NCBI GenBank assembly: GCA_029879735.1 | Contig: JAOUPS010000001.1 | Span: 18,831 to 82,830, forward strand | From: Candidatus Bathyarchaeota archaeon | Lineage (GTDB): Archaea > Thermoproteota > Bathyarchaeia > Bathyarchaeales > Bathycorpusculaceae | DNA: 64,000 nucleotides | Direction of reading: 5' to 3' | Shown: positions 21,793 through 42,343 of the stretch, in pieces | Layout: every line of letters starts with the position of its first letter | Numbering within the stretch: the stretch's first letter is position 1 | The notes under the pieces: model-generated | Database searches by the model: none | Told to the model about the DNA's origin: nothing | The model's input: the letters and a program-made list of their open reading frames with translations, nothing else | Translations under genes and position numbers: made by a program

Positions 21793-21933
21793 CTAGCGCA
21801 CGCTCCTTGTTATGCTTTCCAGTTTTTTCATTGCTAGGAGTAACATGTTGCTGATGATTATATCTGGTCTTGTATTCAGCTTTTCAGCTATTTTCTCAAC
21901 CTTCACGTAGAACCGCTTGACAAACGACTGGTT
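21793..21933 (-). pseudogene. C-terminal remnant of the ParB-like gene family (copy C)
   Basis: The minus-strand frame reads NQSFVKRFYVKVEKIAEKLNTRPDIIISNMLLLAMKKLESITRSVR-stop. This is clearly homologous to the last ~45 aa of ORFs 41203..41934 and 35372..35722. There is no start codon, and the stop lies within CTAGCGCAC. Confidence 0.7.
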
Positions 21934-21978
21934 TCATGGGCTGGTTTGGCTTCTGGCATTCGGCAGTCAGGTGACAAG

Positions 21979-21988
21979 GCGCGCGCGC
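21979..21988. repeat. (GC)5 motif locus
   Basis: aagGCGCGCGCGCtgg, between the ParB-like remnant and the nuclease-like fragment. Confidence 0.9.
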
Positions 21989-22022
21989 TGGAATAGATGT
22001 ATCTCCAACTGCATGCAAACTA

Positions 22023-22424
22023 ATGGTAAAGAGAATGCGAAAATTGAATGTGCAGATTACGGAAAACGACATTATCGGTCTTCCTAAAACAGTGGAAGAA
22101 CTGAAGGTCATGCAACCTTTCGAGTTTCAAAATTGGGTTGTACAAAAACTCTCCGCGAGGTCAACAAGAAGGAAGGGTGGTGATATGGGTATAAATGGTT
22201 GGTTACTGGATGGGAGACCATTACAGATCAAACAATCAGAAAATATTGGAAGAAACGTTATCGACAATTTTGAAACCGCTATGAGAAGACAAGGAAGAAC
22301 AAAAGGTATGATTATCGCTTTCAGTTTTGGGAAAGGTGCATACGAAGAGGTTGCAAGAGCAAAACAAGAGGAAGGTCTTGAAATACAGCTAAAAACGGTA
22401 GAACAACTTCTGAAAGAAATTTGA
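22023..22424 (+). CDS. restriction-endonuclease-like (Mrr_cat/PD-(D/E)xK) domain protein, probably the C-terminal fragment of a DNA methyltransferase fusion
   Basis: PFEFQNWVV...GGDMGINGW...LQIKQSENIGRNVIDNFETAM...KGMIIAFSFGKGAYEE resembles the C-terminal nuclease-like module of archaeal N4/N6 methylases. The open frame begins right at the (GC)5 tract 21979-21988. Confidence 0.5.
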   Translation: MVKRMRKLNVQITENDIIGLPKTVEELKVMQPFEFQNWVVQKLSARSTRRKGGDMGINGWLLDGRPLQIKQSENIGRNVIDNFETAMRRQGRTKGMIIAFSFGKGAYEEVARAKQEEGLEIQLKTVEQLLKEI

Positions 22425-22479
22425 TTTCTTCATCACATCAGACTTAACAGTATCCCTTAAAGCAAAAGTTTTTATGTAA

Positions 22480-23958
22480 ATGCACGCTGACGTAAGAAAG
22501 AAAACTGGAGGTATGCCTTTGAAAATGCAGAAACACAAATTTAAAATGTATGCAAGGCTCTTTAAAAAGAAATCTCAAATTTTGGAAGAGGCAAACGAAG
22601 CCGCTAAAGCTATCGGTATTCCCAAAGAACTTAAAGGTCAAATTGGGTTATACGGAGGAGATTCAAGTGTTCCAAAACCTTTAGTGAAAGAGATTAGAAG
22701 AAGCGTTGCAGAAGTACAAAAGAAAACCATAAAAAACAAGATCTTGTTAGACCAGTTAAGAGAGATAGTGAAAGACTTCTATGGTGATATGTATGACGCG
22801 GTTCCGGTGAGTACCTGTGAAGCAGGTTTATGGATAGCATTTGATGTTCTAGTCTCTCCCCCTTTCCAGGGAAGAGGTCAGAGCTATAGAGGAAGATATA
22901 TTGTACCCTACGAAAGAGTATTGCGGTATCATGGGGCTTTTGGCAGGCCTTTTCCACCGAAATATAAAGATTTATATACAGATAGAGGCGTTGAGAGCGG
23001 GCAATTTGGGTTTTCTGGCAAGATATTATGTGACCTGGACACAATTATAGTTCCTCTAATTGGAGCAAAATACGAACCTCATGGAATAAAATATTACACA
23101 GCTACCCTATTAAGCAAAGTAGACCCCAAGGCGTCAGCGAAAGAAATGGAAGAAGTGGCAAGAAGACATGCGCCTTTTCTTACAGCTTTCTGCTCTTTAG
23201 GCTATGATACTCCAGGATATGGTTATGGTATCAAGGATGAAAGAGGAACCCCCCTACTACAAAAACTGATTGGAAAATTAGCTGATGAATTTGATGTACC
23301 ATACATTACTGATAACGCGATGGGTGTACCAGTTTTTGGAACCGACCTACGCAAGACTGGAGCAGATTTGATACTGTATAGCATGGATAAGTCGCTTGCG
23401 CCGACTAGTGGGCTCATTATCGGCAAGGAAGATTTAATGGTTCAAATTCGAAGAGCGTTAGGAATGACATCACCCGGAAAAGCTGCCTATACATTCGCCG
23501 ATGCCGGAAAGGATGCCATTGCTGGACAAATTGCTATGCTAAAAATGCTCAGAGACAAACCAAAAGAGATACTGAAACCTATAGATGAGTTATACAAAAT
23601 TGTTATTGACGAATTTGATGGAATTGAGCCTCATCTTAAAGAAGGTATAATAATTTCAAAATCAATTAACACGAGAGGCGTTGAAATTGATTACGAAGGA
23701 ACATGGAAAGATGGAGAATTTGGAATTCCAATATTCTCTGCTGAGGACAGCGTTTTTGGAACCAATTTAATAGTGCTAGCCTTGAAAAGAATGGGAATTC
23801 TGCCATCAATTACTTACGATGGTAATCTTTGGATAGACCCAGGTCAAGGAACTACAGATGACGAAGGCCAACTAATCGAAAAAAGAATGAGAATGGCGGT
23901 AAGAGGCTTAGTTAAATCTTTAGAAATAGTTTCTAAGTGGGCAGGAATAATCAAATGA
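22480..23958 (+). CDS. SelA-like fold-type-I PLP-dependent protein (L-seryl-tRNA(Sec) selenium transferase-related/UPF0425-like)
   Basis: YSMDKSLAPTSGLIIGKEDLM resembles the SelA/DgaE Lys-loop FSGDKLLGGPQAGIIVGKK. The true start is probably an internal Met near nt 22513-22525, downstream of a TATA-like gtttttatgtaaa. Confidence 0.5.
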   Translation: MHADVRKKTGGMPLKMQKHKFKMYARLFKKKSQILEEANEAAKAIGIPKELKGQIGLYGGDSSVPKPLVKEIRRSVAEVQKKTIKNKILLDQLREIVKDFYGDMYDAVPVSTCEAGLWIAFDVLVSPPFQGRGQSYRGRYIVPYERVLRYHGAFGRPFPPKYKDLYTDRGVESGQFGFSGKILCDLDTIIVPLIGAKYEPHGIKYYTATLLSKVDPKASAKEMEEVARRHAPFLTAFCSLGYDTPGYGYGIKDERGTPLLQKLIGKLADEFDVPYITDNAMGVPVFGTDLRKTGADLILYSMDKSLAPTSGLIIGKEDLMVQIRRALGMTSPGKAAYTFADAGKDAIAGQIAMLKMLRDKPKEILKPIDELYKIVIDEFDGIEPHLKEGIIISKSINTRGVEIDYEGTWKDGEFGIPIFSAEDSVFGTNLIVLALKRMGILPSITYDGNLWIDPGQGTTDDEGQLIEKRMRMAVRGLVKSLEIVSKWAGIIK

Positions 23959-24057
23959 ATCTTGTGAAATCCAAGGTTTTTTAATCCTTTCTCTTTTCTA
24001 TAATGTGTTAGCGCTAACCTATTATATGCGTCCTAAAATAATTAAATACAGTATAGG

Positions 24058-24510
24058 TTGGGACTTAAAATACATAAAGTTGAGCCATATAAAAAAGGAA
24101 TGATCAAGAAGACTCCATTTGTACGAAGAGGTAACGTTGCAGGAAGGCTCGTAGCCATAATGGACTTGAAATTAGATAACAGGGAACTAGAATTAATAAG
24201 TCCTATTTCAAGAGTCATAAAAGTGGGTGAGATACATGAGATAGTTACGACGGAAGAGCAAAGCACCAAAGTATGCAACAAAGTGGGGTATATAGGGTTC
24301 TTTGAAGTTATGAGGGGTGGTGTCTTAGAAGTTGGAGACACTATTTTAATAAAGGAGAGGACTGTAGGTGAAATCTTAGGTTTCAATAACGCTCACATGC
24401 CCAACCATATGAACATTGTAATAAAGGTTAAGAAAAGAGCTACTGGTGTTAAACTAAACCTAAAATTAGACGATAGTGTGTTGATTAAAGGCAGGCGAAA
24501 AAGAAGCTAA
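24058..24510 (+). CDS. hypothetical small beta-rich protein
   Basis: 150-aa ORF co-directional with the SelA-like gene. TATA-like cctattatatgc lies upstream. No confident family assignment. Confidence 0.4.
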   Translation: MGLKIHKVEPYKKGMIKKTPFVRRGNVAGRLVAIMDLKLDNRELELISPISRVIKVGEIHEIVTTEEQSTKVCNKVGYIGFFEVMRGGVLEVGDTILIKERTVGEILGFNNAHMPNHMNIVIKVKKRATGVKLNLKLDDSVLIKGRRKRS

Positions 24511-24532
24511 ATTTCAGGACATCTGGTGCCCG

Positions 24533-25534
24533 CTATGACTTTGGTATAACCTTCGGATTAGCTATAAACAATGGTTTCTTTCCCTGAAAAACTCTTAAGA
24601 CTTCTTCAGCTGCAGTGAATGCTTCTCTTCTGAATGCTTCATACGTAAAGGAAGCCGAATGAGGTGAAAGTATAACATTATCCAACCATAGTAATGGACT
24701 ATCAGGTCTTATAGGCTCCTCTTTAAACACATCTAATCCCGCTCCTGTTATCCATCCTTTTTTCAGCGCTTTAATTAGAGCTTTTTCGTTTATTATCGCT
24801 CCTCTAGCAGTGTTGATAATGATGGCGCTTTTTTTCATAAGCTTAAGTTCCTCCTCTCCAATCAGATGATAGGTATCATCTCTTAAGCCTGTATGGACAG
24901 TTACAATATCTGATTTTGTTAATAGAGTGTTAAGATCCACCAGTGTTGCACCGACTCGTTTTGCATTTTCTTGCGCTTTTGTATAGGCTAACAATTCTAC
25001 TCCGAATCCTCTGAGTTTTTCGGCAACTTTACAACCGACACTTCCGAGTCCAACAATCCCTACAGTCTTCCCTAAGAGTTCGTATCCTAACAAATTCGTG
25101 TCTCTCCATTCTGCTCTCCTTAACCGAAAGTGATTTGTACAAAGATTTTTCAACAAGGCAAGAATAAGACCTATCGTGTGTTCCGCTACACTATCAGAGT
25201 TAGCGCCCGGAGTGTAACAAATTAATATTCCTTTTTCACTTGCTGCCTCGTAATCGACGTTATCTGTCCCGGGTTTTGACCCATACTTGACGACTACCTT
25301 CAGTTTTTCGCCTTTTTCTATTACTTTCCTTGTGATGTGATGTTGGGATGTGATAATTATGGCGTCAACGTCCCTTATTTCATCAATCAAAAGATTTTCA
25401 TCATAAACTTTATCGACCTCACCAACCTTCACTTCCGCTATTTCCTCAAGTATACTGTGTGATTCCTCCCATTCTGGTTCCGGAATCAATACTTTAAACT
25501 TCTTTCCCATAAAATTCACCCAGCATGCACGCAA
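24533..25534 (-). CDS. D-isomer-specific 2-hydroxyacid dehydrogenase (phosphoglycerate dehydrogenase/glyoxylate reductase-like)
   Basis: GKTVGIVGLGSVGCKVA NAD motif, INTARGAIINEKAL, AGLDVFKEEP and SPHSAS motifs. The true start is probably MGKKFKVL. Confidence 0.85.
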   Translation of the reverse strand: MRACWVNFMGKKFKVLIPEPEWEESHSILEEIAEVKVGEVDKVYDENLLIDEIRDVDAIIITSQHHITRKVIEKGEKLKVVVKYGSKPGTDNVDYEAASEKGILICYTPGANSDSVAEHTIGLILALLKNLCTNHFRLRRAEWRDTNLLGYELLGKTVGIVGLGSVGCKVAEKLRGFGVELLAYTKAQENAKRVGATLVDLNTLLTKSDIVTVHTGLRDDTYHLIGEEELKLMKKSAIIINTARGAIINEKALIKALKKGWITGAGLDVFKEEPIRPDSPLLWLDNVILSPHSASFTYEAFRREAFTAAEEVLRVFQGKKPLFIANPKVIPKS

Positions 25535-25790
25535 CTATCACATAAATCTTGTTTTGACTTTAAAACTTTTTGATATACAAGATTCGATTATTTAGAAGAA
25601 TTGCACCATGACTAACTAGAACTTTTTCTCCTATTTGTGCCGGATGATGTTCTGAAGCCTCAATTAATGCGTGATCTAAAACCGCTGAAGAACGATTTAA
25701 CAGAACAATCTGATAGAATCATTCTTCTTCTTGGATTATAGAATATGGCCAAACGCTAATTTTTCTTCTCGATAATGACTTTGCCAATCA

Positions 25791-25800
25791 CTAACGCGCG
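25791..25800. repeat. CTAA-(CG)3 motif locus
   Basis: CTAACGCGCGttt, about 25 nt downstream of the stop of the operon-2 gamma subunit gene. Confidence 0.85.
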
Positions 25801-25825
25801 TTTCACATTTAATCGTCTAACATGC

Positions 25826-26362
25826 TTATTCAGCTAGCTCAAGACCCTTCTTTAAGGCTTCTATGTTTATTTTCTTGGTTTCTTTAGGAACACTATCTTC
25901 AATAGACTTTATGAGGGATTTATTCGTGACGATTTTTGTAAGGGCTATCAACACACCCACCATTATCATGTTGGCTACTATAGGTTGCTTCAGTTCTTTT
26001 GAAGCTATTCTTGTAGCAGGGATCTTTAATATTTCAAATTCTTTACTTAGAGTATGTTTGGGTTTGACTATATCCTCATCGACTATTACTATGCCATTTG
26101 ACTTTACCTTGCTGATGTATCGGTCGAATGCCAGTTGCGACATTGCGATTAACACGTCAGCTTCAATCACCATCTGATAATCTATTTCTTCATCAGCCAC
26201 TATAATCTCAGATCTAGCCGCTCCACCCCTTGCTTCAGCTCCATAAGACCTAGTTTGAACCGCTTTTTTGCCATCATAAACTGCGGCTTTACCAAGTACG
26301 GCTCCAGCCAGTAACGTGCCTTGCCCGCCAAATCCTCCAATGATCATCTCTACCCTTGTCAA
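25826..26362 (-). CDS. 2-oxoacid:ferredoxin oxidoreductase gamma subunit, operon 2
   Basis: IGGFGGQGTLLAG and SYGAEARGGAARSEIIVA motifs. Confidence 0.85.
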   Translation of the reverse strand: MTRVEMIIGGFGGQGTLLAGAVLGKAAVYDGKKAVQTRSYGAEARGGAARSEIIVADEEIDYQMVIEADVLIAMSQLAFDRYISKVKSNGIVIVDEDIVKPKHTLSKEFEILKIPATRIASKELKQPIVANMIMVGVLIALTKIVTNKSLIKSIEDSVPKETKKINIEALKKGLELAE

Positions 26363-27189
26363 GCTTGCACCTCATTTAGTAATTTTTTGTAAGCCTTAGT
26401 GAGTCCAACTCTTTCTCTATCAACAAACTCTCCAACTACTATACGCCCTTCAAGTTCCTCTTCACTCATAGACTTCGCTTTACTTATCGGAAGTGAAGAA
26501 TCCCTTAACATCAATAACATTTTAGCAGGGTCTCTAATGCCTATGAATCTTCCGTATTGGACAGGACATTGAGACATAACTTCTATGAATGAGAAACCTT
26601 CCTTCAAAAGTCCCCTCTTCATAGATGAAACTAACTGTTTCACGTGAAAAGTTGTCCATCGGACTACATAGGAGGCGCCAGCAGCTTCAACAAGTTTGCA
26701 AAGATCGAAGGGATACTCTAGATTTCCATAAGGGGTGGTTCTCGTCTTCATACCATGAGGAGTTGTGGGTGCAACTTGTCCCCCGGTCATTCCGTAAATA
26801 CGGTTGTTGATTAGAATTGCCAAAATTTCGATGTTTTTCCTAGCAGCATGTATTAGATGATTGCCACCTATTGCAGCACCATCTCCATCTCCGGTAAACA
26901 CCACGACACGCAAATCAGGATTGCTTAGTTTAACGCCCGTTGCGAAAGCTAAGGGTCTTCCGTGTATTGTATGAAGGACATCCGTGTTAAAGAATGGGCT
27001 TGGAATCCAACTGCTACAACCGATACCAGACACAAACACCATTTTTCCAAAGTCTAGATCTAACTCCTCGATAGCCCTTAACATACACTGAGCTATTATG
27101 CCGTTTCCACATCCCGCACAGTGAGGTTGGCGCTGTGCACCTTTCCTAGCATACTTTGCTATTAATGGATGAAGCTGTGTCTCACTCAT
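26359..27189 (-). CDS. 2-oxoacid:ferredoxin oxidoreductase beta subunit, operon 2
   Basis: HCAGCGNG, VFTGDGDGAAIGGNH and NNRIYGMTGGQ motifs. Confidence 0.9.
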   Translation of the reverse strand: MSETQLHPLIAKYARKGAQRQPHCAGCGNGIIAQCMLRAIEELDLDFGKMVFVSGIGCSSWIPSPFFNTDVLHTIHGRPLAFATGVKLSNPDLRVVVFTGDGDGAAIGGNHLIHAARKNIEILAILINNRIYGMTGGQVAPTTPHGMKTRTTPYGNLEYPFDLCKLVEAAGASYVVRWTTFHVKQLVSSMKRGLLKEGFSFIEVMSQCPVQYGRFIGIRDPAKMLLMLRDSSLPISKAKSMSEEELEGRIVVGEFVDRERVGLTKAYKKLLNEVQA

Positions 27190-28351: not shown

Positions 28352-28584
28352 TCCTCTGCCTCCTTAACTACATGAATTGCCAAGTCAGGACAATAATATT
28401 CGCAAATACGGCAGCCCGTACATTTATTAATTCCGATGGGGATAGGCAGATAAATACCTTGGGAAGACAATTCATCACTCTTGCTGAAAACTTTTAGGGG
28501 GCATACGGATATACATATGTCACACCCTTTACATAATTCTTCATTTACCAGTATTTTTATTGATTTCTTTGCCTGAGCTTTCAA
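28348..28584 (-). CDS. 2-oxoacid:ferredoxin oxidoreductase delta subunit (2x[4Fe-4S]), operon 2
   Basis: CKGCDICISVCP and CTGCRICEYYCP motifs. It is the first gene of the delta-alpha-beta-gamma operon, with a TTG start. Confidence 0.85.
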   Translation of the reverse strand: MKAQAKKSIKILVNEELCKGCDICISVCPLKVFSKSDELSSQGIYLPIPIGINKCTGCRICEYYCPDLAIHVVKEAED

Positions 28585-29149
28585 CGATTTTTCACCCCTG
28601 CATGATATTTTTAGTTTTGTATTCTAGCATTCTGTTACCGCCAATCTTCATCGCTGTATACGCCTCACCAAGCTCCATTACACCTTTAACCATACGAATT
28701 TACTTTAAACTCAACACATACTCAGGTTGGACTTTTATACGATATTTTCGTTGTTAATGCAATAGGCAGAACCACTTTTGTGTTATATGTTATCGGATTT
28801 CGACTTTGAGGCTTACTTGCATTTTGCCCTGACGGCGAATGTTCAAGAATAGTTTGCTATCTCCTTGGTTTATATAAACATTACGTGCGTGAATAATGTT
28901 AATTTATTATGGTTTAGAAGAATTCAGAGCACCAACTCAGAATAGCGTTTATGTTTCAAAATGAGCGCTTTTGATATTTATTCTACGAGATCACAAATCT
29001 GAAAAGTTGAGTTGGTTATTATGGTTTTGAATTACCTGTATTATCAAAGTATAAGCAGTTGGTGTATCTTGTAAGAAGCCATGGCTATTTGTTACTTATC
29101 GCAGTGAGATGTTTAATAAGAGTTAAGGCTATTCTCATCTTATTAATAG

Positions 29150-30310
29150 TTGGGTGATAGAATGTCAAAAAGAGTTTCGTCTGTTCCTTTATCAGGCGTC
29201 AGAAAGATAATGGAATATGCCAAGGGATTACAGGACATAATACCTCTTAATATAGGTGAGCCGGATTTCGTAACTCCTAAACATATACGAGAGGCTGCAA
29301 AGAAATCAATAGATGAAGGGTTCACTCACTATACTACAATAAAAGGTATCCCGGAAATACGTAGAGCTATTGCCGAGAAATTAATGAATGAAAACAAGAT
29401 GGATGTGGATCCTGAAAATGAAATACTAGTAACAGCTGGCACACAGGCAGCCTTCTCTGCAGTTTGCCAAGCGTTACTTGATCCAGGCGATGAGGTGATC
29501 GTGCAAGACCCATTTTATTCAGGATATGAAGTTGCCCTTCGAATAGCAGGGGCTAAAATTGTTCCTGTATCCGTAAGGGAGCAAAAATATTTCGCCATAA
29601 ATCCAAACGAAATTAAAGAAAAGGTTACGGATAAAACAAAGATGGTGGTTTTGATTTCCCCAAACAATCCCACAGGGAATGTGTTAAACAAACATACGCT
29701 CAATGAGATTTCAGATATAGCTAATGATCATGACTTATTGGTTGTTTCAGATGAAATATACGAAAAAATAACATACGATGATGTAGTAAACTACAGTATA
29801 GGTTCCATTCCGGGCATGGAAGATAGAACTATAACTATAAACGGTTTCTCTAAGACTTATGCCATGACGGGGTGGCGAATTGGATTCGTAACAGCTTGTG
29901 AAAAGCTAATGGGGAATATAAGTAAAGTTCATCATTCCATGAACGTTTGTGCTTGCTCTATATCTCAGAGAGCTGCTCTCGTTGCGTTAACTGGTCCACA
30001 AGATTGTGTGACTAAAATGGTTAAAGAATATGATAAGAGAAGACGCGAGATAACGAACTTGTTGAATAAAACACCTGGTTTTGAATGTAAGATTCCGAAA
30101 GGTGCCTTTTATGTCTTCCCCAACGTTAAACAATTTAAGATGTCTTCAATGGAATTAGCCAAACTCCTTATTAAGAAAGCGAGAGTTGTAACTGTGCCTG
30201 GCTCAGCGTTCGGAAAGAATGGGGAAGGATATTTAAGGCTCTCATATGCTACATCTTTGGAGAAAATCAGAGAAGCGCTTGCAAGGATTAAAAAAGTATT
30301 AACAGGTTAG
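29150..30310 (+). CDS. class I aspartate aminotransferase-like
   Basis: GEPDFVTP, SPNNPTG and NGFSKTYAMTGWRIGF motifs. Confidence 0.85.
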   Translation: MGDRMSKRVSSVPLSGVRKIMEYAKGLQDIIPLNIGEPDFVTPKHIREAAKKSIDEGFTHYTTIKGIPEIRRAIAEKLMNENKMDVDPENEILVTAGTQAAFSAVCQALLDPGDEVIVQDPFYSGYEVALRIAGAKIVPVSVREQKYFAINPNEIKEKVTDKTKMVVLISPNNPTGNVLNKHTLNEISDIANDHDLLVVSDEIYEKITYDDVVNYSIGSIPGMEDRTITINGFSKTYAMTGWRIGFVTACEKLMGNISKVHHSMNVCACSISQRAALVALTGPQDCVTKMVKEYDKRRREITNLLNKTPGFECKIPKGAFYVFPNVKQFKMSSMELAKLLIKKARVVTVPGSAFGKNGEGYLRLSYATSLEKIREALARIKKVLTG

Positions 30311-34036: not shown

Positions 34037-34168
34037 TCAACTGTCTATTAAGCCACTTATCTTTCTTCAAAAACGCTCGAAAGTCCGTTGGCACAAGATT
34101 AGTGCATGTGTTAAATCTTATATGACTTTGCGTGTGATTATGCTTGCGAAGGTAAACTTCGCAGAATA

Positions 34169-35344
34169 GTGGTGGGAATATTGTTTGAAGGTTCTAACAG
34201 AGTCGGCTTGGTAAAGCCTTCGGCGATTCGGAGGATGCTTGAGCTTTCAAGTGGGATGAAGAATGTTGTTCACTTGGAGCAGGGTGAGCCAGACTTTACA
34301 ACGCCAAGGCACATCTTGAAGGCAGCTGTAGAGGCCACTGAGAAAGGTTTTACGCACTACACGGAAATTGATGGGACGCTGGAACTGCGCCAGGCTATAG
34401 CTGAAAAGCTTGAAAGGGAGAATGATATTGATGCTGACCCAAAAACCGAGGTCACAGTAACCTCTGGTTCGCAAGAAGCCATGTTGATTGCCGCGCTGGG
34501 ATTTCTAGATTCTGGAGACGAAGCCCTAATTCTTGATCCATACTATCCCGCGTGTTTTGAAGACACACTGTTGGCAGAAGCTGTGCCTATCCCAGTTCCA
34601 CTCGACGAAGGAAAGAACTACGAAATAGAGATGGAAGTCCTGGAGAACAAAATAACGAAAAGAACCAAAATGATCTGGCTGTGTAATCCATCCAATCCAA
34701 CAGGACATGTATTCTCAAAACAAGACCTAGAAATCATAGCTGAGGTAGCGCAGAAAAACAACCTGGTAGTCTTCAGTGACGAAATATATGAGAAAATCGT
34801 CTACGACGGTGCAAGGCACATCAGTATAGGTTCTTTACCTGGCATGAAAAAGCGAACAATCACAGTAATCGGTTTCTCAAAAGCATACGCAATGACCGGC
34901 TGGAGGATCGGATACACAGTTGCTGAAAAGAAGCTCTCCGCCATCTTGCGCAAACTACACTACTACGCAGTCCTATGTCCAAACGCGATCTCGCAGAAGG
35001 CAGCTCTCGCCGCGTTAACCGGACCGCAAGACTGCGTCAAAGAAATGGTAACAGAGTACAACCGAAGAAGAGAACTGGTGCTTGACAAACTTGACAAGAT
35101 CGAGTCTTTGCCCTATACAAAACCGAAAGGAACATTCTACGTTTTTCCAAACTTTTCAACCTACGAAAAATCGGATGAATCACTCGCGACGTACTTATTG
35201 AAAGAAGCCGGAGTAGTCACTGCACCTGGATCAGGCTTTGGAAGAGCCGGCGAAGGGCACCTGAGAATATCCTACTCCGTCTCCTATGAACAAGTTAATG
35301 AAGGAATGGAGCGGATCAGAAGGTGCCTGGAACACAAAGCATAG
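34169..35344 (+). CDS. class I aspartate aminotransferase-like
   Basis: GEPDFTTP, NPSNPTG and IGFSKAYAMTGWRIGY motifs. Confidence 0.85.
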   Translation: MVGILFEGSNRVGLVKPSAIRRMLELSSGMKNVVHLEQGEPDFTTPRHILKAAVEATEKGFTHYTEIDGTLELRQAIAEKLERENDIDADPKTEVTVTSGSQEAMLIAALGFLDSGDEALILDPYYPACFEDTLLAEAVPIPVPLDEGKNYEIEMEVLENKITKRTKMIWLCNPSNPTGHVFSKQDLEIIAEVAQKNNLVVFSDEIYEKIVYDGARHISIGSLPGMKKRTITVIGFSKAYAMTGWRIGYTVAEKKLSAILRKLHYYAVLCPNAISQKAALAALTGPQDCVKEMVTEYNRRRELVLDKLDKIESLPYTKPKGTFYVFPNFSTYEKSDESLATYLLKEAGVVTAPGSGFGRAGEGHLRISYSVSYEQVNEGMERIRRCLEHKA

Positions 35345-35371
35345 ACCTTAGCGCGTGCATTTCATAACGTG

Positions 35372-35722
35372 TCAGCTTCTTGTAGTCATGCTCGTACTCA
35401 GTGTCTGGTTCTGTTTTGCCATGTCTTCCAGCTTTTTCATTGTTAGAAGCAACATCTTGTTGATGATCATGTCTGGTTTTGTACCCAGCTTCTCAGCTAT
35501 CTTCTCAACCCTCATGTAGAACCGCTTCTCCAAGACAATATTAACAAACCCCGTGTTGGCGTAATTCCTTATTGTCAAGATTTTTTCTTGCGGATCTGAA
35601 AACAAAAGCTCGTCGTATCCAGTTGCAAGATGTGCAACTGAACCATCAGAATAAAACCTGTTTTGGAGCCGTTTAGGATTGGTGCCTACGCTACTATTTT
35701 TTGAAAGATTAACTGTGAGCAC
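35372..35722 (-). pseudogene. 5-prime-truncated ParB-like gene copy (copy B; C-terminal domain only)
   Basis: KILTIRNYANTGFVNIVLEKRFYMRVEKIAEKLGTKPDMIINKMLLLTMKKLEDMAK is near-identical to the C-terminus of ORF 41203..41934. The ParB/Srx N-terminal domain is absent. Confidence 0.7.
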
Positions 35723-35771
35723 GGGTGCTTTGTGAGTGGCTTGTTGGAAAGTGTAAGTATAAATGGAAGTT

Positions 35772-36332
35772 TTATTTTGGAATGTTTTTGGGTGATTTTG
35801 TTTTTCTTAGTTCCTTAATTATTGCACGGTATACAATTGAGTCTATTCTGAACTTGACTTTAATTAGGTTGTCAAGTATTTCTTGTGCTTCATTAATTGA
35901 GATTAAACCCTTTCTGTGAGCTTGGACTAGGATGCCGCAGGTTCCGATTGGTTTGATTTTTAGTATCCTCGAAACTCTTCTGGCTTCCTTGTCGTCTACA
36001 ATGAAGATGTCGGCGTTTAATTGTTTGCAGAGTTTCAATGCTTGTTTCTCTCCTAGACCGATTTTGTCGTTCTCATCCAAGAACGCGTATTTTAGATCGG
36101 TTTCAGCCTTTATTCTTTCTTTAAGAATCCATCTGCCAACTGCTTCTTCTATGATTGATGCGTCGGTGATTTTGAGGATTTTTCCTTGTGTGACGGCTTC
36201 GTTGAATACTGCTTCGGGTATCCAGACTTTTCCGTAAACATTCTTGACCAAGTTTAACCTGCTGATTTTGGCTAAGTAGATTAGAGGACTTGAGTTGGAA
36301 ACGACTTTTGGCTGGATTCTATCCACGTCCAA
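35772..36332 (-). CDS. DUF3368/COG2405 PIN-like toxin
   Basis: VVSNSSPLIYLAKISRLNLVKNVYGKVWIPEAVFNEAV N-terminus. It overlaps the upstream antitoxin gene by 14 nt. Confidence 0.75.
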   Translation of the reverse strand: MDVDRIQPKVVSNSSPLIYLAKISRLNLVKNVYGKVWIPEAVFNEAVTQGKILKITDASIIEEAVGRWILKERIKAETDLKYAFLDENDKIGLGEKQALKLCKQLNADIFIVDDKEARRVSRILKIKPIGTCGILVQAHRKGLISINEAQEILDNLIKVKFRIDSIVYRAIIKELRKTKSPKNIPK

Positions 36333-36642
36333 GCGTCTTCATGTCTTCTTCAAAGTCTTCAGCATCGTACTGAAGGACGATCTTTCTTTTTTCTAGTGCG
36401 TCGATTATCTCCCAGATTGAGAGTCCGGCTGTTTCTGCGGCTCTGGATAAGGTGATTGTTCCATTTCGGTAGAGTTCGAGGGCTTTTTTGAGGGCCCATT
36501 CTCTTGTGTACTGCTCTAGCGCTCTATCTAGAATGGTTGATTTGTCTACTTTCTCTTCATGAGCGATTTCTTCAATTAGTTTAACGCGGTCTTTTGGCAG
36601 TCTTGCTGATATGACTTGTGACGGTTTCTTCAATTTGACCAC
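36319..36642 (-). CDS. UPF0175/COG2886 antitoxin with RHH-like N-terminus
   Basis: ALELYRNGTITLSRAAETAGLSIWEIIDALEKRKI matches the UPF0175 signature. It is paired with the DUF3368 gene. Confidence 0.75.
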   Translation of the reverse strand: MVKLKKPSQVISARLPKDRVKLIEEIAHEEKVDKSTILDRALEQYTREWALKKALELYRNGTITLSRAAETAGLSIWEIIDALEKRKIVLQYDAEDFEEDMKTLGRG

Positions 36643-36871
36643 TTGTATACAATATAAGATGATGTCTACATATTTAAATCCTTCTGTGAAGGCTTCCTGA
36701 AAACCCAGTACAGCCTAACAACAAACAAGGTTAGAGGACTAAAAAAGTCACCGTCTACGCCCTCTACAGCACACTCAGCATAGTCCTAACAAGAGAAGCA
36801 GCAATAAACATCGGAAGACCAGACAAAGCAGCCTCACAACATACTTCAACACATAATTTCGGGACAAGCCA

Positions 36872-36877
36872 GCGCGC
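36872..36877. repeat. GCGCGC motif locus
   Basis: ccaGCGCGCtcg, 6 nt downstream of the AcnX small subunit stop. Confidence 0.8.
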
Positions 36878-36882
36878 TCGAT

Positions 36883-37338
36883 TCAAGAAGTTACGTCGCG
36901 ATTGTGCCAGACTTCCTGCCTTGTTATTGTGACTACACCCTTTTCAGCATCTACCTTAATGAAGTCGCCGGTGCGAATGACCTCAAACGGGTCCTTTTCC
37001 AATTTGTCTACCAGAGGAACCTTCGCTATGAACGCACTGACGACGAGCACTGTCTCCACATCCTTAACAATCATTGCTCTGGGAGCAACATTATTTGAGG
37101 CTAGCTTATAAAGGCCGTCAATCTGAACCACCGAACTGGCCTTTCCCGACGGAAACACAAGCACCTTATCTGCGAGGTTCTTTCCAGCCAATTCATGGGT
37201 TCTCTCTCTAACCATGCCCGTCTTGGGATCTGTTAGGTAGAAGCAGATGGGCTCATGAGAAACCAGAGCCTCACCTTCCCCGTAGCCGCCTATAATCCGG
37301 TGACATTTCAACGCGATCTCCAAACTTTTCATCCCCAT
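36883..37338 (-). CDS. aconitase X swivel-domain small subunit (DUF126)
   Basis: GYGEGEALVSHEPICFY...LAGKNLADKVLVFPSGKASSV...VAPRAMIV pattern. It overlaps the large subunit gene by 10 nt. Confidence 0.8.
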   Translation of the reverse strand: MGMKSLEIALKCHRIIGGYGEGEALVSHEPICFYLTDPKTGMVRERTHELAGKNLADKVLVFPSGKASSVVQIDGLYKLASNNVAPRAMIVKDVETVLVVSAFIAKVPLVDKLEKDPFEVIRTGDFIKVDAEKGVVTITRQEVWHNRDVTS

Positions 37339-38534
37339 CTCCCTTCGATTGCTGCTTCAACGCAGTCCTTCAGTCTCGCCACTATAGCTTCTTTGAATCT
37401 CCGATAATAAGCGCATTTAGGCGAGTCTGTCATACCCACTTTGTCCCTGTACGCAATCCAGCATGGCTCATCTATGCACGTGTCCACCACGACGTGTCCA
37501 CCAGCCCTGTCTATGACATCGACGATGCCGGTTCTCTCGGCCAAAATCCTAGTTGTAGCGGATGTACAAACCCAAAACGACACATCATCATGTATCTTTT
37601 TTCCACTCAAGAGTCTCGCAACTTCTCCAATCTGCTTCAGCGTGTAATGCGGGCATCCAAGCATGACGAAGTCTATTTTTCCACTTGTGGTCTGAAGCTC
37701 TTTGTAAGTCTGTTTAAGCTCTTGATCTGTCACAGTAATCTTGTCCCCTGGAGTGTCGCCCTGAAAGGCTTCTTCAACAGTTGAGGCCTCAACGGTGAAT
37801 CCAGGCATGTAGAACATGGATACGGCGCCAGAAGTATTTGACATCGCGCAGAAGTTTATCAGTTCCTCCGTATTCGGGCGTCTTGATATACCAGTAAACA
37901 CAGGGATTCCATAGTCTATCCGCTTGCCAACGTAGTACCCTAGAAGCGTATAATCAAATTCATCCTTTAGGGCTGCTTCCGCTTTGACTAGAACCGTGCC
38001 CTTCCGATTATCTTTAATGTGCAGTCCATATTCAGGGGTCTTGCCATTCACTCCTGCAGCTAGTGCACTCTGAGCCGCTTCACGATTGGTTCTGGCACCA
38101 ATAACAGAATTCACATAAGGTGTAGCGCTTGATTCAGAGAAGGCTACAGTTTCACCGTACAATGGAATATTCTCTGCCATGTATGGTGTGCAACTCCAGC
38201 TGAGTATAGCGCCTACTCGCTTGTAGGCTTCCATAACTCTCCGAGCCACTTCCCCCTCATCCTTCGGAACCTCAAACAGTCTATCGAAATACTCAATATC
38301 ATACACTGGGTTCGTGCTCGTGGGCACCTTACAACGGGCGCCCCCATTAGCCAAAAGCTCCACAAAGTACAAGTCTCCTTCCTGGCCACTTGAAGCCGCA
38401 TGCGCACGGCCTATGGGGATCATTTTTTCAGCGTCATATGCATCTCCAATTGCCACAAGCAACTCAATCGCCTTTCGTGTTCCCTCTCCAAATTCGCCAT
38501 TAAGTATTCGTTCTTCCTTTGTGGTTAAATACAT
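37329..38534 (-). CDS. aconitase X catalytic large subunit (DUF521)
   Basis: MYLTTKEERILNGEFGEGTRKAIELLVAIGDAY...IGRAHA N-terminus is typical of DUF521/AcnX. Confidence 0.8.
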   Translation of the reverse strand: MYLTTKEERILNGEFGEGTRKAIELLVAIGDAYDAEKMIPIGRAHAASSGQEGDLYFVELLANGGARCKVPTSTNPVYDIEYFDRLFEVPKDEGEVARRVMEAYKRVGAILSWSCTPYMAENIPLYGETVAFSESSATPYVNSVIGARTNREAAQSALAAGVNGKTPEYGLHIKDNRKGTVLVKAEAALKDEFDYTLLGYYVGKRIDYGIPVFTGISRRPNTEELINFCAMSNTSGAVSMFYMPGFTVEASTVEEAFQGDTPGDKITVTDQELKQTYKELQTTSGKIDFVMLGCPHYTLKQIGEVARLLSGKKIHDDVSFWVCTSATTRILAERTGIVDVIDRAGGHVVVDTCIDEPCWIAYRDKVGMTDSPKCAYYRRFKEAIVARLKDCVEAAIEGRWG

Positions 38535-38575
38535 CTCAAATCACCAACATTATGAAACATCAGCCCAAAGCAATG

Positions 38576-39514
38576 CTAACAAACGTTTTGCGGGCGTCCC
38601 TCCAAGAACTTCACAACATTATCGATGCAGATATCAGTGCACCTCTTTGCCGCCTCGACGGTATGGAACCCAACGTGAGGAGAAAGTATCGTATTCTCAA
38701 GTTTGAACAAGGGGTTATCTTTGGACGGAGGTTCTTCTTCGAAAACATCTAAGCCCGCAAAAGATATCTTGCCTGATTTCAATGCGTCGATTAAAGCCTT
38801 CTCGTTGATTACTCTGCCTTGGGATGTGTTGATTACAACAGCACCTTTTTTCATAGCTTTTATTTCTTTCTTCCCTATCAGTCTCTCCGTTTCGGATGTT
38901 AAAGCCACATGCAGAGTTATGAAGTCGCTTTCTTTCAACAGTGTATAAAGGTCGACGTACCTCATCCCGATCTCTTCAGCCTTCTTCACATTCGGATATT
39001 TGTCGTAAGCTAAGATTTGCATCTTAAAAACTTTGGCTATCTCAGCGACTCTGCAGCCAATCGATCCTGTGCCAATTATGCCAAGAGTTTTTCCGTGCAA
39101 TTCGACTCCTCCAAATGGTCTCCAATCAAAATCGCCTTTTCTAACACGCTTGTCAGCTAATGGCAATTTCCTAATACCCGCCAACAACAAGGCGAAAGTG
39201 TGCTCGGCAACGGCTTCCGTAGCGTAGCCCGGAACATGTGTAACCACGATTCCTTTTTCCTTTGCCGCACTGAGATCCGCGTAGTGACAAGTGGTAGCCC
39301 ATATTGAAATCATTTTGAGTTTCTTGACGGAATCAATCACGTCCTTAGTCAAATCACTCCAACCAACTATTACGATGTCAGCTGCCTTTATCCTTTCTTT
39401 CAATTCATCAGGCGTCTTAGGCGGATCATTAAAGACTTCTAGATCACCGATCGATCTTAACCTCTTAACGTGCTCTTTTTCCAGATAGACGTGATCGACG
39501 ACTACTATCTTCAT
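38576..39514 (-). CDS. D-isomer-specific 2-hydroxyacid dehydrogenase
   Basis: GKTLGIIGTGSIGCRVA, INTSQGRVINEKAL, AGLDVFEEEP and SPHVGF motifs. Confidence 0.85.
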   Translation of the reverse strand: MKIVVVDHVYLEKEHVKRLRSIGDLEVFNDPPKTPDELKERIKAADIVIVGWSDLTKDVIDSVKKLKMISIWATTCHYADLSAAKEKGIVVTHVPGYATEAVAEHTFALLLAGIRKLPLADKRVRKGDFDWRPFGGVELHGKTLGIIGTGSIGCRVAEIAKVFKMQILAYDKYPNVKKAEEIGMRYVDLYTLLKESDFITLHVALTSETERLIGKKEIKAMKKGAVVINTSQGRVINEKALIDALKSGKISFAGLDVFEEEPPSKDNPLFKLENTILSPHVGFHTVEAAKRCTDICIDNVVKFLEGRPQNVC

Positions 39515-39542
39515 TTTTCATCATTCTTGAGAATATAGGCGT

Positions 39543-39869
39543 TTACTTAAAATTTTTGTCAAAGAATTTTTTTTCAAGATTCTCAACATGGTCTTTTTCG
39601 TCTTCCCTGCGAAAAGCAAGTTCAATATCATTCAAAACATACGCATTAACCGCTCCGCCTATTCCAAGCATACCTTCACTAAGCTTTTCCAGTTTGGTAA
39701 AATCTATTCCCAATCTAACAGCATCTTTATCACAAATAGTTGTTCTCGAAGCCCCAGTATCAACCAAAAACTCAACTGTTTCATGTATACCTAACGGCTT
39801 AGAACCTAAAACAGCAACTACATAGGCTGCCTCAAGGGGACCAGGCTTAAAGAAGCATGGAATCCTCAA
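39543..39869 (-). CDS. retropepsin-like clan AA aspartic protease (AF_0612-like)
   Basis: FLVDTGASRTTI catalytic DTG motif and a GIGG flap-like motif, in 108 aa. Confidence 0.7.
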   Translation of the reverse strand: MRIPCFFKPGPLEAAYVVAVLGSKPLGIHETVEFLVDTGASRTTICDKDAVRLGIDFTKLEKLSEGMLGIGGAVNAYVLNDIELAFRREDEKDHVENLEKKFFDKNFK

Positions 39870-39885
39870 AAACTTCCCCTCTTAT

Positions 39886-40167
39886 CTAAAGAATTAGCTC
39901 TATCTCCTTAACTGTGACATAATCTACAGCGATCTCGTTGTAGACTTCAGAATACTTTCGTCTCAGTCTTTCAACAAGCCTAACCAATTCACGGTCATGA
40001 TCGATCACAGCTTTGCTTAAAACGGCAACCCACTCATCCTTGAACCTATTCTTCAACTCACCATAATGCTTGCTAATCCACCGCACGTTACCTTCATACC
40101 TAGAAAGCACAGCAACAACAGACTCCATTTTTTGAACCACCAAGCTCAAACATAACATACACAACAA
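39886..40167 (-). CDS. small DUF5678-like protein paired with the aspartic protease
   Basis: WISKHYGELKNRFKDEWVAVLSKAVIDHDRELVRLVERL pattern. The probable start is at MESVV (about nt 40128). It lies 17 nt upstream of the protease gene. Confidence 0.5.
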   Translation of the reverse strand: MLCMLCLSLVVQKMESVVAVLSRYEGNVRWISKHYGELKNRFKDEWVAVLSKAVIDHDRELVRLVERLRRKYSEVYNEIAVDYVTVKEIELIL

Positions 40168-40418
40168 ACCTTAAATCACTTTCGAAAAACTCGATTTCAG
40201 CAGAAAATTTCGAGCTCCCACCTGAAGGCTCCCACCTAAAACTAGCTAAAAAAGCTGAACTACTATTGAAACAAAAAACTGTTTTAATTACAATTAAACT
40301 ACCTATCGCGTGTGAAATAACAGATAGTTTGAAAAGCATGCTTCTTGTCCGTTTTCAACAGGGGTAGTTCGCATTTGTGGGAAAGATTTAATTATCCCAT
40401 TTTAGTTTTTATCCTATA

Positions 40419-40685
40419 GTGGTTGTAATGGGAGCTATCGTGAAGATTGATGAACGAGGAAGACTAGTCGTTCCATCCGAATTCAGAAACAAAGTGGAAA
40501 CCGACTACTTTGAGCTACACGAGGAGAATGGGCGGCTGGTGTTAACTCCTGTTCCAGACCCGTTAAAAACCTTGATTGGAAGGGTATCGAGAGTGAAACC
40601 TTTCAGGGATCTTGATGAAGCCGCTGAGGAAGAGGCTGAACGCACAGTAAGGGAGGAAAAGAAACACGCCAATTCTGGAGGCTGA
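40419..40685 (+). CDS. vapB: AbrB/SpoVT-family antitoxin (VapB-like)
   Basis: VKIDERGRLVVPSEFRNKV swapped-hairpin motif and an acidic C-terminal tail. Confidence 0.8.
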   Translation: MVVMGAIVKIDERGRLVVPSEFRNKVETDYFELHEENGRLVLTPVPDPLKTLIGRVSRVKPFRDLDEAAEEEAERTVREEKKHANSGG

Positions 40686-41109
40686 CCTTCTCTACGCTTC
40701 TCTAGATCCAAAAGATGATCATCATCAAGTCGCAAGGAAACTCCTAAGTCTAGCAAAGCGAAAACGGTTAGCAGACGTCAAGATTGACTCCCTTGCATTG
40801 CATGAGCTAGAGCTAAACTTGAAGACCGGTAACATCCTTATTGAGAAAAGAAAGGCCACCCTAGAAGACATAGCCAAATTCTTCACCGATTTAAGCCAGC
40901 TGCTATCTCTATACAAACTAAGCGTCTATCCACTAACGTGTCAACAAATAGCCAAAGCCGCCAACCTAAGGAAAAAGCACAACCTGACCTTCTACGATTC
41001 TCACCACGCAGCATCAGCAATGCTGTACGACTCAAAAATCATATCCACAGACAACACATACGACTCTGTCATAGGCCTAAAAAGATTAAACCCCTACTCT
41101 ATAAAGTAA
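40672..41109 (+). CDS. vapC: PIN-domain toxin (VapC-like), start codon unresolved
   Basis: PIN acidic residues lie in ADLLYASL, HELE, FYDSHHAASA and ISTDNTYD. The track ORF starts at TTG 40798. The frame and the homology run open back to 40651 with no ATG/GTG/TTG, overlapping the vapB stop. Confidence 0.6.
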   Translation: MLEADLLYASLDPKDDHHQVARKLLSLAKRKRLADVKIDSLALHELELNLKTGNILIEKRKATLEDIAKFFTDLSQLLSLYKLSVYPLTCQQIAKAANLRKKHNLTFYDSHHAASAMLYDSKIISTDNTYDSVIGLKRLNPYSIK

Positions 41110-41202
41110 GCCAAAAGATTTCCGGGAAAGACCCTCTAAAAACTGAAAAAGACTGTCAACGCATTTCTCCCTACGAATTTTTCTTCTCTGCAAAAAAAAG
41201 TG

Positions 41203-41211
41203 CTAGCGCGC
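41203..41211. repeat. CTAGCGCGC motif locus
   Basis: It forms the stop codon and last codons (HAR-stop) of the ParB-like gene. Confidence 0.85.
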
Positions 41212-41934
41212 ATGTTTTGCCATAGCTTCCAACTTTTTCAATGTTAGCAGCAACGTGTTATTGATGATTATGTCAGGTTTTGTACCCAGCTTTTCAGCTA
41301 TCTTCTCAACCTTTGTGTAGAACCGCTTTTCCAGAACAATGTTGACAAACTTTGTGTTCGCATAAATCTTTACGGTTAAGATTTTCTGCTGAGGATTTGA
41401 CAATGAAAGCTCGTCCTCGAAAGCTGCATAACGTGCAACTTTACTTTTGTGTGTTTGTTCTTTACGTTTGTCAAACTTTAGTGCTTTGGAAGGGCCTCCA
41501 AGACCAGGCCTTGCTTTAAGTTTGTCAGGCAGATACTTCATGACCCACCTGTAGCTCATCCCTGTCTCCTCAGCTACTTCGTAAGCTATCTTTCCAGGTT
41601 CCACTCCTTCGTTGAAGTATACCTCTCCGAGTCTTCCTAATATCTCACTTTTTTCTTCGGCTGATACATGCCGTCTGCACACGTTGCTTATCAGTCTGGC
41701 TATAAGCTTTTCTTTCACAGTTTCTATGTTTTCAAGCACTATCTTAGGCCAGTTCTCGTCTGCTTCAAAACGGTGAAGCCCATCTATTACATTTCCATGT
41801 TTGTCCAGAAGTATCGGGTAGAGTCTTCCAACACGCTTGCTGGAAGCCTTCAATTCTGAGATTGCGTCTTTTCGAATCATGTTTAGTTCGCCGTATTCAT
41901 TTTTTTGCAGATCAATGGAGATGCGACGTTCCAT
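41203..41934 (-). CDS. ParB/Srx-like N-terminal domain protein with HTH and conserved C-terminal domain (copy A, full length)
   Basis: LYPILLDKHGNVIDGLHRFEA (ParB-box DG.HR), and a MSYRWVMKYL HTH-like segment. The C-terminal 65 aa are repeated at 35372 and 21793. The stop codon is the TAG of CTAGCGCGC. Confidence 0.7.
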   Translation of the reverse strand: MERRISIDLQKNEYGELNMIRKDAISELKASSKRVGRLYPILLDKHGNVIDGLHRFEADENWPKIVLENIETVKEKLIARLISNVCRRHVSAEEKSEILGRLGEVYFNEGVEPGKIAYEVAEETGMSYRWVMKYLPDKLKARPGLGGPSKALKFDKRKEQTHKSKVARYAAFEDELSLSNPQQKILTVKIYANTKFVNIVLEKRFYTKVEKIAEKLGTKPDIIINNTLLLTLKKLEAMAKHAR

Positions 41935-42329
41935 TTATATAGATATGTGACGTTCTATTTACATAAGTATCCATCTATATCCTATACTTGTCATGTCAAG
42001 GAACAAGTCTATTTAACGTTTATTCTCATTTGAAACCCAAAAACATAAATGATTAATATAACGTGTCCAAAGTGTGAATCATCTGCAAACAAGACTAATC
42101 ACTAAATAATTAGTGGAACGCTTGCTTGTTTTCTATTATCTGCACGTAAGAAGAGGAAGCATCGAAGTACCCAAACTGTTGTTATACCTTAACATGACCA
42201 TAAAACTTCTATATGTAACAATGTTCTCGCACGAGTCTTTTGAGGTTGAGGCTGAAGCACGGACAGGCGAGAGAATATGCCACATATAGCGTAAACTAAA
42301 GCCGGTGCTTTGTTCTATATACCCTTATA

Positions 42330-42343
42330 TAGCGCGCGCGCTA
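42330..42343. repeat. TAGCGCGCGCGCTA perfect 14-bp palindrome
   Basis: Directly abuts the TATA-like cttatata (42324-42331), 20 nt upstream of the TIGR00266-family gene start. Confidence 0.9.

Follow-up and report, generated by a model that had tools for sequence, protein, structure and literature searches.

The question raised by this locus is why an archaeal chromosome should carry three copies of a ParB-like gene, two of them shortened at the 5′ end and all three close to the same GC-rich motif. The locus lies in 64,000 nucleotides (nt) of the Candidatus Bathyarchaeota contig JAOUPS010000001.1 (positions 18,831 to 82,830; hereafter, the window), which are chromosomal DNA of a Bathyarchaeia archaeon. 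A reading made from the letters alone (the sequence-only reading) had located the copies, designated here as A, B, and C, and had explained them as insertions of one element family carrying the ParB-like gene at one terminus, followed by progressive truncation. We compared the window with related loci (designated by L numbers) and homologous proteins (P numbers), all of the comparison material being metagenome contigs; L001 and L002 are independent ENA and JGI assemblies. The analysis led us to a different account, which we consider probable: A is functional, B and C are relics of genes truncated by rearrangement, and the junctions are marked by the tip of an IS5-family insertion sequence (IS). 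The copies are surrounded by a highly plastic, toxin–antitoxin-rich region. Rfam and tRNA scans of the window gave zero matches and no tRNA genes, and PADLOC likewise gave zero matches. A literature search on Bathyarchaeota ParB, Bathyarchaeia insertion sequences, and the palindrome CGCGCGCG in archaea found nothing relevant.

One intact gene and two relics

The three copies are located where the sequence-only reading had placed them, and alignment confirmed their homology (80% nt identity between B and A and 61% amino acid (aa) identity between C and A). Copy A is an intact gene, as judged by its open reading frame (ORF), database counterpart, fold, and ratio of nonsynonymous to synonymous substitution rates (dN/dS). 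Its longest ORF (41203..41934, minus strand) has 243 codons, and the likely start at M19 (41203..41880) gives a protein of 225 aa that is identical to the database protein P0002 and consists of a ParB-N/helix-turn-helix (HTH) fold, a linker, and a C-terminal ribbon-helix-helix (RHH)-like domain. The dN/dS of copy A was 0.16–0.20 against its orthologues, and that of intact family genes was 0.16–0.23, indicating that the intact genes are under purifying selection. In this genome, copy A is the sole intact member, and B and C are non-functional.

Copy B is a relic ORF of 116 aa (35372..35722, minus strand), recognized by homology, a common breakpoint, and relaxed constraint. It had been taken for the last ~115 aa of the gene, which is an overstatement: only about 76 aa (35411..35638, also cited as 35411..35640) are derived from ParB, corresponding to A residues 148–223 (72% aa identity, with the nt identity given above extending over 228 nt). 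The ORF opens with ~28 codons of unrelated sequence and closes with 12 codons of a different tail, which we call type B. The ~50 nt upstream of B that are not derived from ParB occur nowhere else in the window and gave no match to the IS described below, and a scan for sigma-70-type promoters and terminators near B was uninformative, the model being inappropriate for archaea. Copy C (21793..21933, minus strand) is a dead 3′ fragment of a type-C paralogue, recognized by homology, deletions, and an in-frame stop. Its homologous part (21796..21933) corresponds to A residues 175–225. It has no start codon, an in-frame stop upstream, and no ORF of at least 40 aa, and it has suffered a 15-nt deletion inside the domain and a second deletion of ~105 nt. 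Copy C is closest to the type-C genes of L027 and L028 (87–90% nt identity), in comparison with which the ~105 nt are missing between the gene end and the downstream GCGCGCTGG; as a result, CTAGCGCAC is placed at the end of C's frame.

The clade has at least three paralogue or allelic types, which are set apart by their C-terminal tails: ...AKHAR (type A), ...AKQNQTLSTSMTTRS (type B), and ...LESTIHTR (type C), each followed by the stop codon. Progressive truncation of a single copy is therefore not what the comparison revealed: B and C belong to diverged paralogue lineages with distinct tails, and full-length counterparts occur in the same local context in relatives. In L008 and L007, full-length type-B genes are convergent with the same aminotransferase as B, and the occurrence of these genes at the same place, together with the type-B tail, indicates that B is the remnant of a resident gene. 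B would thus be the leftover of a gene convergent with the aminotransferase at 34169..35344, and C a sliver of a type-C gene. The 5′ breakpoint of B (...GGTTC/AGTTGCA, the slash marking the break) is identical in the window, L009, and L001/L002, that is, in three populations, and the truncation is therefore old. B is missing at the syntenic site of L003–L006, which retains only, between (CG)n tracts, 70 nt derived from the middle part of a ParB gene (alignment score 54; shuffle maximum 27).

B evolves neutrally. In the C-terminal region, we counted 10 synonymous and 34 nonsynonymous differences among B relics versus 53.5 and 36.5, respectively, among A orthologues, and dN/dS was 0.38–3.0 for B relics versus 0.10–0.20 for intact genes, although the values for B come from few substitutions and non-independent pairs, which tells against our account. 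A whole-ORF comparison was also made, and several replacements in the B relics fall on near-invariant residues. The ungapped dN/dS between the type-C genes of L027 and L028 was left out as invalid because L028 has an 8-codon deletion: its "full-length" type-C gene (L028:7002..7637, P0035) has an RHH-like domain whose first strand and helix are short of 8 codons, and it may itself be decaying. Taken together, truncation, loss of the start or frame, and relaxed selection identify B and C as pseudogenes. They resemble IS-associated pseudogene remnants in their truncation, lost start, internal deletions, relaxed selection, lineage-specific presence, and toxin–antitoxin surroundings, and differ from the usual remnants of this kind in that several junctions keep only an IS tip or a (CG)n tract.

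Alternatively, B and perhaps the other short C-terminal ORFs could code for functional RHH proteins that stand alone, possibly as antitoxin-like or dominant-negative partners of the full-length protein. RHH domains function as small dimers, the 116-aa ORF of B is kept at 89–92% identity in other metagenomes, the C-terminal profile finds 136 cluster representatives, mostly of 38–170 aa, and B adjoins toxin–antitoxin genes. However, dN/dS is near or above 1, and near-invariant residues have been replaced; the N-termini of the short ORFs are unrelated junk or internal Met108 starts, as is typical of contig-end or relic calls; B is missing at the syntenic site in L003–L006; and C is untranslatable. 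We therefore regard this alternative as distinctly improbable.

Fragments of the gene are not confined to the window: C-terminal fragments are found in L007 and as many short metagenome ORFs, and N-terminal fragments in L020 and L024. In addition, some full-length genes are mosaics. The L008 gene, which lies directly between LSM and the aminotransferase, combines a type-A N-terminal part (93–94% nt identity to the A genes of L003 and L001) with a type-B C-terminal part and tail, and the L007 gene combines a type-C N-terminal part with a type-B tail. The C-terminal part of the L001 A gene is as near to the B relics (86–89%) as to other A genes. L008 may represent the undivided ancestor, from which A and B would have arisen when inserted DNA split the gene and its 3′ ~230 nt were duplicated; it may also be a deletion recombinant between A and B. 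Under either reading, the repeated C-terminal segments recombine.

The mosaics, the C-terminal part of the L001 A gene, and the recurrence of C-terminal fragments in metagenomes would also suit a model in which the 5′-truncated copies are silent donor cassettes that swap C-terminal (RHH plus tail) modules into the expressed gene by gene conversion. We give this model very little credence. Genomes contain only one or two fragments each, and these decay neutrally; N-terminal-only fragments occur as well; and ordinary recombination, deletion between direct repeats, or the position of L008 as an undivided ancestor explains the mosaics equally.

As for the neighbors of the relics, a UPF0175/DUF3368 (PIN-like) toxin–antitoxin pair (35772..36642, minus strand) lies upstream of B, which confirms what had been noted from the letters, and is syntenic in L003–L006. 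The window contains three class I/II aminotransferase paralogues (20454..21647, 29150..30310, and 34169..35344), two of which directly adjoin ParB relics. Fragments of aminotransferase or lyase genes stand beside ParB genes in L001, L007, L008, and L027, and P0142 is a lyase C-terminal fragment fused to a ParB C-terminus. An Mrr_cat-type restriction-endonuclease-like ORF (22023..22424; Pfam E = 2e-6, with no PADLOC match) begins 35 nt past the (CG)5 tract beside C.

The motif is the terminus of an IS5-family element

The stop codons of all three copies had been described as anchored in the motif (the motif sites are given here without strand). This is the case for A, where CTAGCGCGC (41203..41211) supplies the last codons (H-A-R) and the stop and is identical to the terminal 9 nt of the IS, and for C, whose frame is closed at the 3′ end by the degenerate tip motif CTAGCGCAC (21793..21801). 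The tip-like motif near B, TTAGCGCGTGC (35348..35358), does not touch the ORF, however: B and the aminotransferase converge with 27 nt between their stops, and the motif falls within this spacer, 14 nt beyond the end of B. The motifs reported on the 5′ sides are all present: the perfect 14-bp palindrome TAGCGCGCGCGCTA (42330..42343), which borders a window-specific 4.9-kb insertion and lies about 450 nt 5′ of A; the degenerate palindromic tip motif AGCGCGCTCG (36871..36880, also cited as 36872–36878); and the GCGCGCGCGCT tract (21979..21989) about 45 nt beyond the 5′ breakpoint of C. TAGCGCG occurs 15 times in the window versus 3.25 times expected, a count reached in 0 of 100 shuffles, and GCGCGCGC occurs 11 times versus 0.19 times expected. 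The motif is strongly intergenic.

The motif coincides with the end of an IS of ~1.2 kb, of which the window holds two copies on the minus strand. The first (8720..9942; transposase at 8916..9881) is intact and has the termini GCGCGCTAGCCTGTTTAGAAATT and AATTTCTAAACAGCCTAGCGCGC; the second (44813..46029; transposase at 45006..45953) has the same termini and is 78–84% identical to the first at the nt level. Both copies code for DDE_Tnp_1 (PF01609; E = 1e-24 and 5e-21) and DUF772 (PF05598; E = 2e-15 and 2e-16) domains, and both end in GCGCGCTAG, C or G, and CTGTTTAGAAATT; the inverted-repeat arms are 34 nt long and 88% complementary. When metagenomes were scanned with the inner part of the IS terminus as the query, we obtained more than 120 stretches and 130 distinct flanks with GCGCGCTAGSCTGTTTAGAAATT termini. 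Nearly all of these flanks read ...GCGC/GCTAG, G or C, and CTGTTTAGAAATT, a few deviating at one or two of the four outer bases, and the DNA beyond was unrelated. Given that the flanks are constant out to GCGC and unrelated beyond, GCGCGCTAG (on the other strand, CTAGCGCGC) is the tip of the IS, and the suggestion that the motif is the terminus of a mobile-element family is supported. The transposase domains, the inverted repeats, and the many unrelated contexts assign the element to the IS5 family, whose members it resembles in length, DDE_Tnp_1 and DUF772 domains, inverted repeats of 23 nt or longer, and multi-copy occurrence.

GCGCGCTAG may alternatively be read as a 5-nt tip plus a GCGC target. 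No direct repeat was found outside GCGCGCTAG in the 21 complete IS copies, GCGC or GC being a possible duplication or a part of the inverted repeat. All that the search for an empty site yielded was a doubtful site of 80% identity and, at a nearby position, another IS variant, and with no clear empty site the two roles of GCGC, inverted repeat and duplicated target, are not separable.

Several other observations concern the element itself. In two of the 21 complete copies (L076 and L148), the flanks are inverted repeats of 10–16 nt, as if the IS had landed in the middle of a palindrome. L111 (about 10880..10892) contains an IS variant that has the same tip but differs in its inner repeat (GCGCGCTAGGCTACAGTTAGA); it is inserted 11 nt away from where the main IS lies in L076, and several IS lineages may therefore share the GCGCGCTAG tip. 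An IS in L027 was considered as the same element and rejected, being an unrelated IS5 member without (CG)n tips.

The sequence-only reading had also raised a parS-like role for the palindrome at 42330, and, more generally, the ParB-like protein might recognize the (CG)n/TAG palindromes much as KorB or Noc recognize their sites, which would give these palindromes a parS- or operator-like function. ParB-family proteins bind palindromes of 13–16 bp, and the KorB operator TTTAGCSGCTAAA has similar TAGC...GCTA arms. The perfect palindrome upstream of A, the HTH and RHH-like domains of the protein, and the intergenic preference of the motif are consistent with such a role. The distribution of the motif is not: it equals the IS terminus, it coincides with indel junctions, not promoters, and it is not near the ParB genes of distant family members, where motif density is also low. 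The palindrome at 42330 is one of many IS-tip-like (CG)n sites and is not conserved upstream of ParB genes elsewhere. From these sequence comparisons, a binding-site function appears highly improbable.

Identification of the tip also bears on the proposal that a single mobile element family bearing the ParB-like gene at one of its ends was inserted three times at the motif and then eroded from the other side. In its favor, the tip GCGCGCTRG follows the stop by 0, 14, and about 105 nt in the three paralogue lineages, always in the same orientation; the ParB unit is directly bordered on its 5′ side by (CG)n in L001 and L028, and in the window its 5′ boundary is close to the palindrome; the context of the A-type unit in L001 differs from that in the window and L003; and an IMG/VR contig has two homologues of the ParB-N/HTH module. 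In that orientation, however, the three ParB copies all lie on the flank side of the tip, outside the tip-bounded DNA, and the element to which the tip belongs is IS5. The copies differ by ~20% at the nt level and have different tails, as old paralogues and not recent insertions would; B occupies an ancestral position, with a full-length gene at the same place in L008; and in more distant Bathyarchaeia the ParB stop is not beside the motif, an adjacency on which the proposal had been made to depend. No plasmid, provirus, or integrative element carrying the gene was found. A, B, and C have unrelated flanks and share neither cargo nor an integrase or replication gene, and across 22 loci the family is not consistently accompanied by an integrase, a replication gene, or any other gene of plasmid or virus type. 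Repeated insertion of a ParB-bearing element is thus improbable in our judgment.

Junctions at tips and (CG)n tracts

The repeated rearrangement and replacement next to the copies that the sequence-only reading had supposed was borne out by comparison of the junctions. Block X (36879..41202, minus strand) is a 4.3-kb segment between two direct GCGCGCTRG copies and codes for PIN, DUF5678, an aspartyl-protease-like protein, a 2-hydroxyacid dehydrogenase, and the large and swivel subunits of AcnX; the CTAGCGCGC motif at the end of A forms its left junction and the AGCGCGCTCG motif its right junction. Block X is absent from the corresponding position in L001/L002, where the end of the A gene continues as ...AAAACA-CGCGCTGG-CTTGTCC... 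straight into a sequence designated D. In the window, D lies 4.3 kb off, after the AcnX swivel gene, and the window and L003 read ...AAAACATGCGCGCTAG-(PIN ... AcnX swivel)-GAGCGCGCTGG-CTTGTCC.... The arrangement is ParB end-GCGCGCTAG-X-GCGCGCTGG-D in the window and L003, and ParB end-CGCGCTGG-D in L001/L002. From the position of X between two direct tip copies, it follows that the last three codons and the stop of A come from the first tip. Types A and B diverge exactly after ...GCAAAACA, which argues that the type-A tail was made by the block X junction. The frame of A would leave an ancestral type-B-like sequence after GCAAAACA, cross GCGCGC, and stop at the TAG of the tip that opens block X.

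Other junctions carry similar marks. At L008:488, CGCGCGCGC forms a filler between two segments whose window counterparts (the 5′ end of a lyase gene and position 47625) are without it. In L001, the truncated aminotransferase fragment beside B ends in GCGCGCGCTAG, and the B relic is preceded by GCGCGCTAGGCCGTTGCTAAATT, which resembles the IS terminus at 11 of 15 positions past the tip; the alignment of this upstream sequence with the IS end (score 28; shuffle maximum 29) is suggestive and not significant alone. Homology of the ParB unit ends on its 5′ side directly at (CG)n in L001 and L028, and an 840-bp insertion in L007 begins exactly at the motif after the stop of B. Assembly artefacts were considered as a source of the junctions and rejected, the (CG)n tracts being much shorter than assembly k-mers and the junctions recurring in independent assemblies (L001 and L002; L003–L006).

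Three further differences between the window and its relatives were noted. A 4.9-kb segment (42225..47176) with an AIM24-like gene, a B12-binding radical SAM gene, the second IS5 copy, and one more gene is missing from the LSM–ParB interval of L003–L006; it is flanked by an imperfect direct repeat of ~24 nt from the ParB promoter region (ACATTGTTACATATAGAAGTTTTA at 42201–42224 and CTATCATTGCATATAAAAGTTTTA at 47176–47199), and this repeat resembles a TATA-type promoter. Relative to L003, the window has an extra block of 7.4 kb (51234..58607), and a ~1.2-kb locus (62160..63466 in the window; L003:946..2093) contains different genes in each genome. (CG)n/TAG motifs occur at or near the boundaries of the latter two (51289 and 62202; L003:946 and 2062).

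Of the 43 alignment-block ends overall, 17 are no farther than 30 nt from a (CG)3 tract, 10 of them no farther than 3 nt, compared with 2% of random positions, but motifs and block ends are both intergenic, so that the excess over this null is smaller than it looks; a rough estimate puts the share of intergenic positions with a motif no more than 30 nt away at about 17%, and the excess remains real. From these junctions we infer a role for the IS: it would have inserted at GCGC, and deletion, capture, or recombination at its tips would then have produced the junctions, and the copies would have been truncated by rearrangements whose junctions keep the GCGCGCTAG tip or (CG)n tracts derived from, or targeted by, the IS. 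The most economical reading of the locus is decay of a gene family in a plastic region, with rearrangements associated with an abundant IS5-family element.

Besides the choice of null, several points weigh against this account. Some junctions are without the motif, for example that at 47176, the end of the 4.9-kb insertion. The ORF of B is still open in at least four populations. No unambiguous empty site of the IS was recovered among 150 loci, and we found no established mechanism by which an IS5 element would leave its tips behind without its body. The idea that the solo motifs are decayed IS ends had to be rejected, as their similarity to the IS past the 7–9-nt tip is at the random level.

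These solo tips may be accommodated differently if the GCGCGCTAG tip and the derived (CG)n palindromes constitute a portable recombination site, at which kilobase blocks such as X are inserted, excised, or swapped without an IS body. The IS5-type transposase or another partner would then act on minimal tips, and the ParB fragments would be collateral damage, or the ParB/RHH protein would itself take part. We consider this unlikely. Block X resembles an IS-derived mobile insertion cassette in that its cargo is bounded by IS-type tips. Unlike such cassettes and palindrome-targeting IS, block X and the solo sites keep only 5–9 nt of recognizable tip, and no clear target duplication came to light beyond a possible GCGC or GC.

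A ParB-like family of Bathyarchaeia

The intact copy represents an uncharacterized, Bathyarchaeia-specific family with a ParB-N/HTH part, a disordered linker, and an RHH-like C-terminus. Profile matches of the copy A protein to ParB were all weak and under the curated thresholds: Pfam PF02195 (ParB_N) gave E = 0.089 and 13.3 bits versus a cut-off of 26.3, TIGR00180 gave E = 1.6e-5 and 24.7 bits versus a cut-off of 58.45, and a PHROG ParB-like profile gave E = 6.5e-6. A sequence search of PDB with the single protein gave zero matches. An AlphaFold model was built from a 30-sequence alignment of the family. Its mean pLDDT was 70, with 70–91 over most of residues 21–120, the N-terminal half being predicted with confidence, and the best Foldseek matches of the model were Spo0J (1vz0), the ParB-N domain of pNOB8 (5k5d), and Noc (7nfu), with probabilities of 0.98–1.0, E of 1e-3 to 2e-2, and a TM of about 0.3 measured over the whole chain. 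The protein is thus predicted to have the three-dimensional ParB-N plus HTH fold.

Residues 127–162 form a disordered linker, and the C-terminal ~45 residues are predicted to be beta-alpha-alpha (strand 179–183, helices 185–198 and 202–224). The profile search of this C-terminal domain that the sequence-only reading had called for gave weak matches to CopG (E = 0.038), HP0222 (E = 0.073), and PutA RHH (E = 0.5). The predicted topology is like that of RHH proteins such as CopG, Arc/MetJ, ParG/omega, and archaeal SegB; the family differs from these in the weakness of the matches (E of 0.04–0.5), the fusion to ParB-N/HTH, and an extra preceding beta-strand (ILTVK).

The box D33-G-x-H36-R37-x-x-A is invariant in the 30-sequence alignment. 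The canonical CTP-binding motif of ParB is GERRxRA, and the box departs from this GxxRxxA arginine patch. The N-terminal ~120 aa, with the conserved DGxHR box, are accordingly like ParB/Spo0J, Noc, KorB, and pNOB8 ParB in predicted fold, whereas the family lies below every curated threshold, has DGxHRxxA in the box, lacks an adjacent ParA, has an RHH-like module in place of the C-terminal dimerization domain, and is limited to Bathyarchaeia. Of the 308 homologues detected, nearly every one with a given source name is from Bathyarchaeia, the exception being P0120, which is labelled Patescibacteria. In GTDB genomes, 17 of 17 loci are from Bathyarchaeia, usually with one per genome. No conserved neighbor, ParA/Walker ATPase included, was found across 22 loci, and judging from the gene lists of these relatives' loci, the absence of a ParA neighbor sets the family apart from type I ParABS systems.

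Type-A and type-B loci share a conserved region of ~190 nt 5′ of the ParB start. Upstream of copy A (42076..42145), it contains a hairpin whose stem is CACTAA/TTAGTG in the window and CATCA/TGATG in L001 and L008, a compensatory change, and the region also contains repeated TGCAGAT boxes. By its sequence, it could be an operator or a leader structure. IMG/VR gave a single weak match, limited to the N-terminal module. This putative viral contig (L029) codes for two larger proteins (4784..5749 and 7614..8765) with the same ParB-N/HTH module (...GRLYPVLVD..GNVIDGFHR...) and without the RHH tail, and inspection of translations suggests that neighboring ORFs resemble a C5-cytosine methyltransferase and a Pol-beta/PolX-type nucleotidyltransferase.

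The picture of a ParB-bearing mobile element with a parS-like site is thus replaced by one live gene, two relics, and an IS terminus at the junctions. The 9-nt tip of an abundant IS5-family element accounts for a conspicuous genome-wide motif, and the synteny breakpoints on the tip or (CG)n tracts may point to an unusual IS-associated route of block insertion and deletion in archaea. The family itself is a candidate for a role in chromatin or regulation, in a phylum of which very few representatives are in culture.

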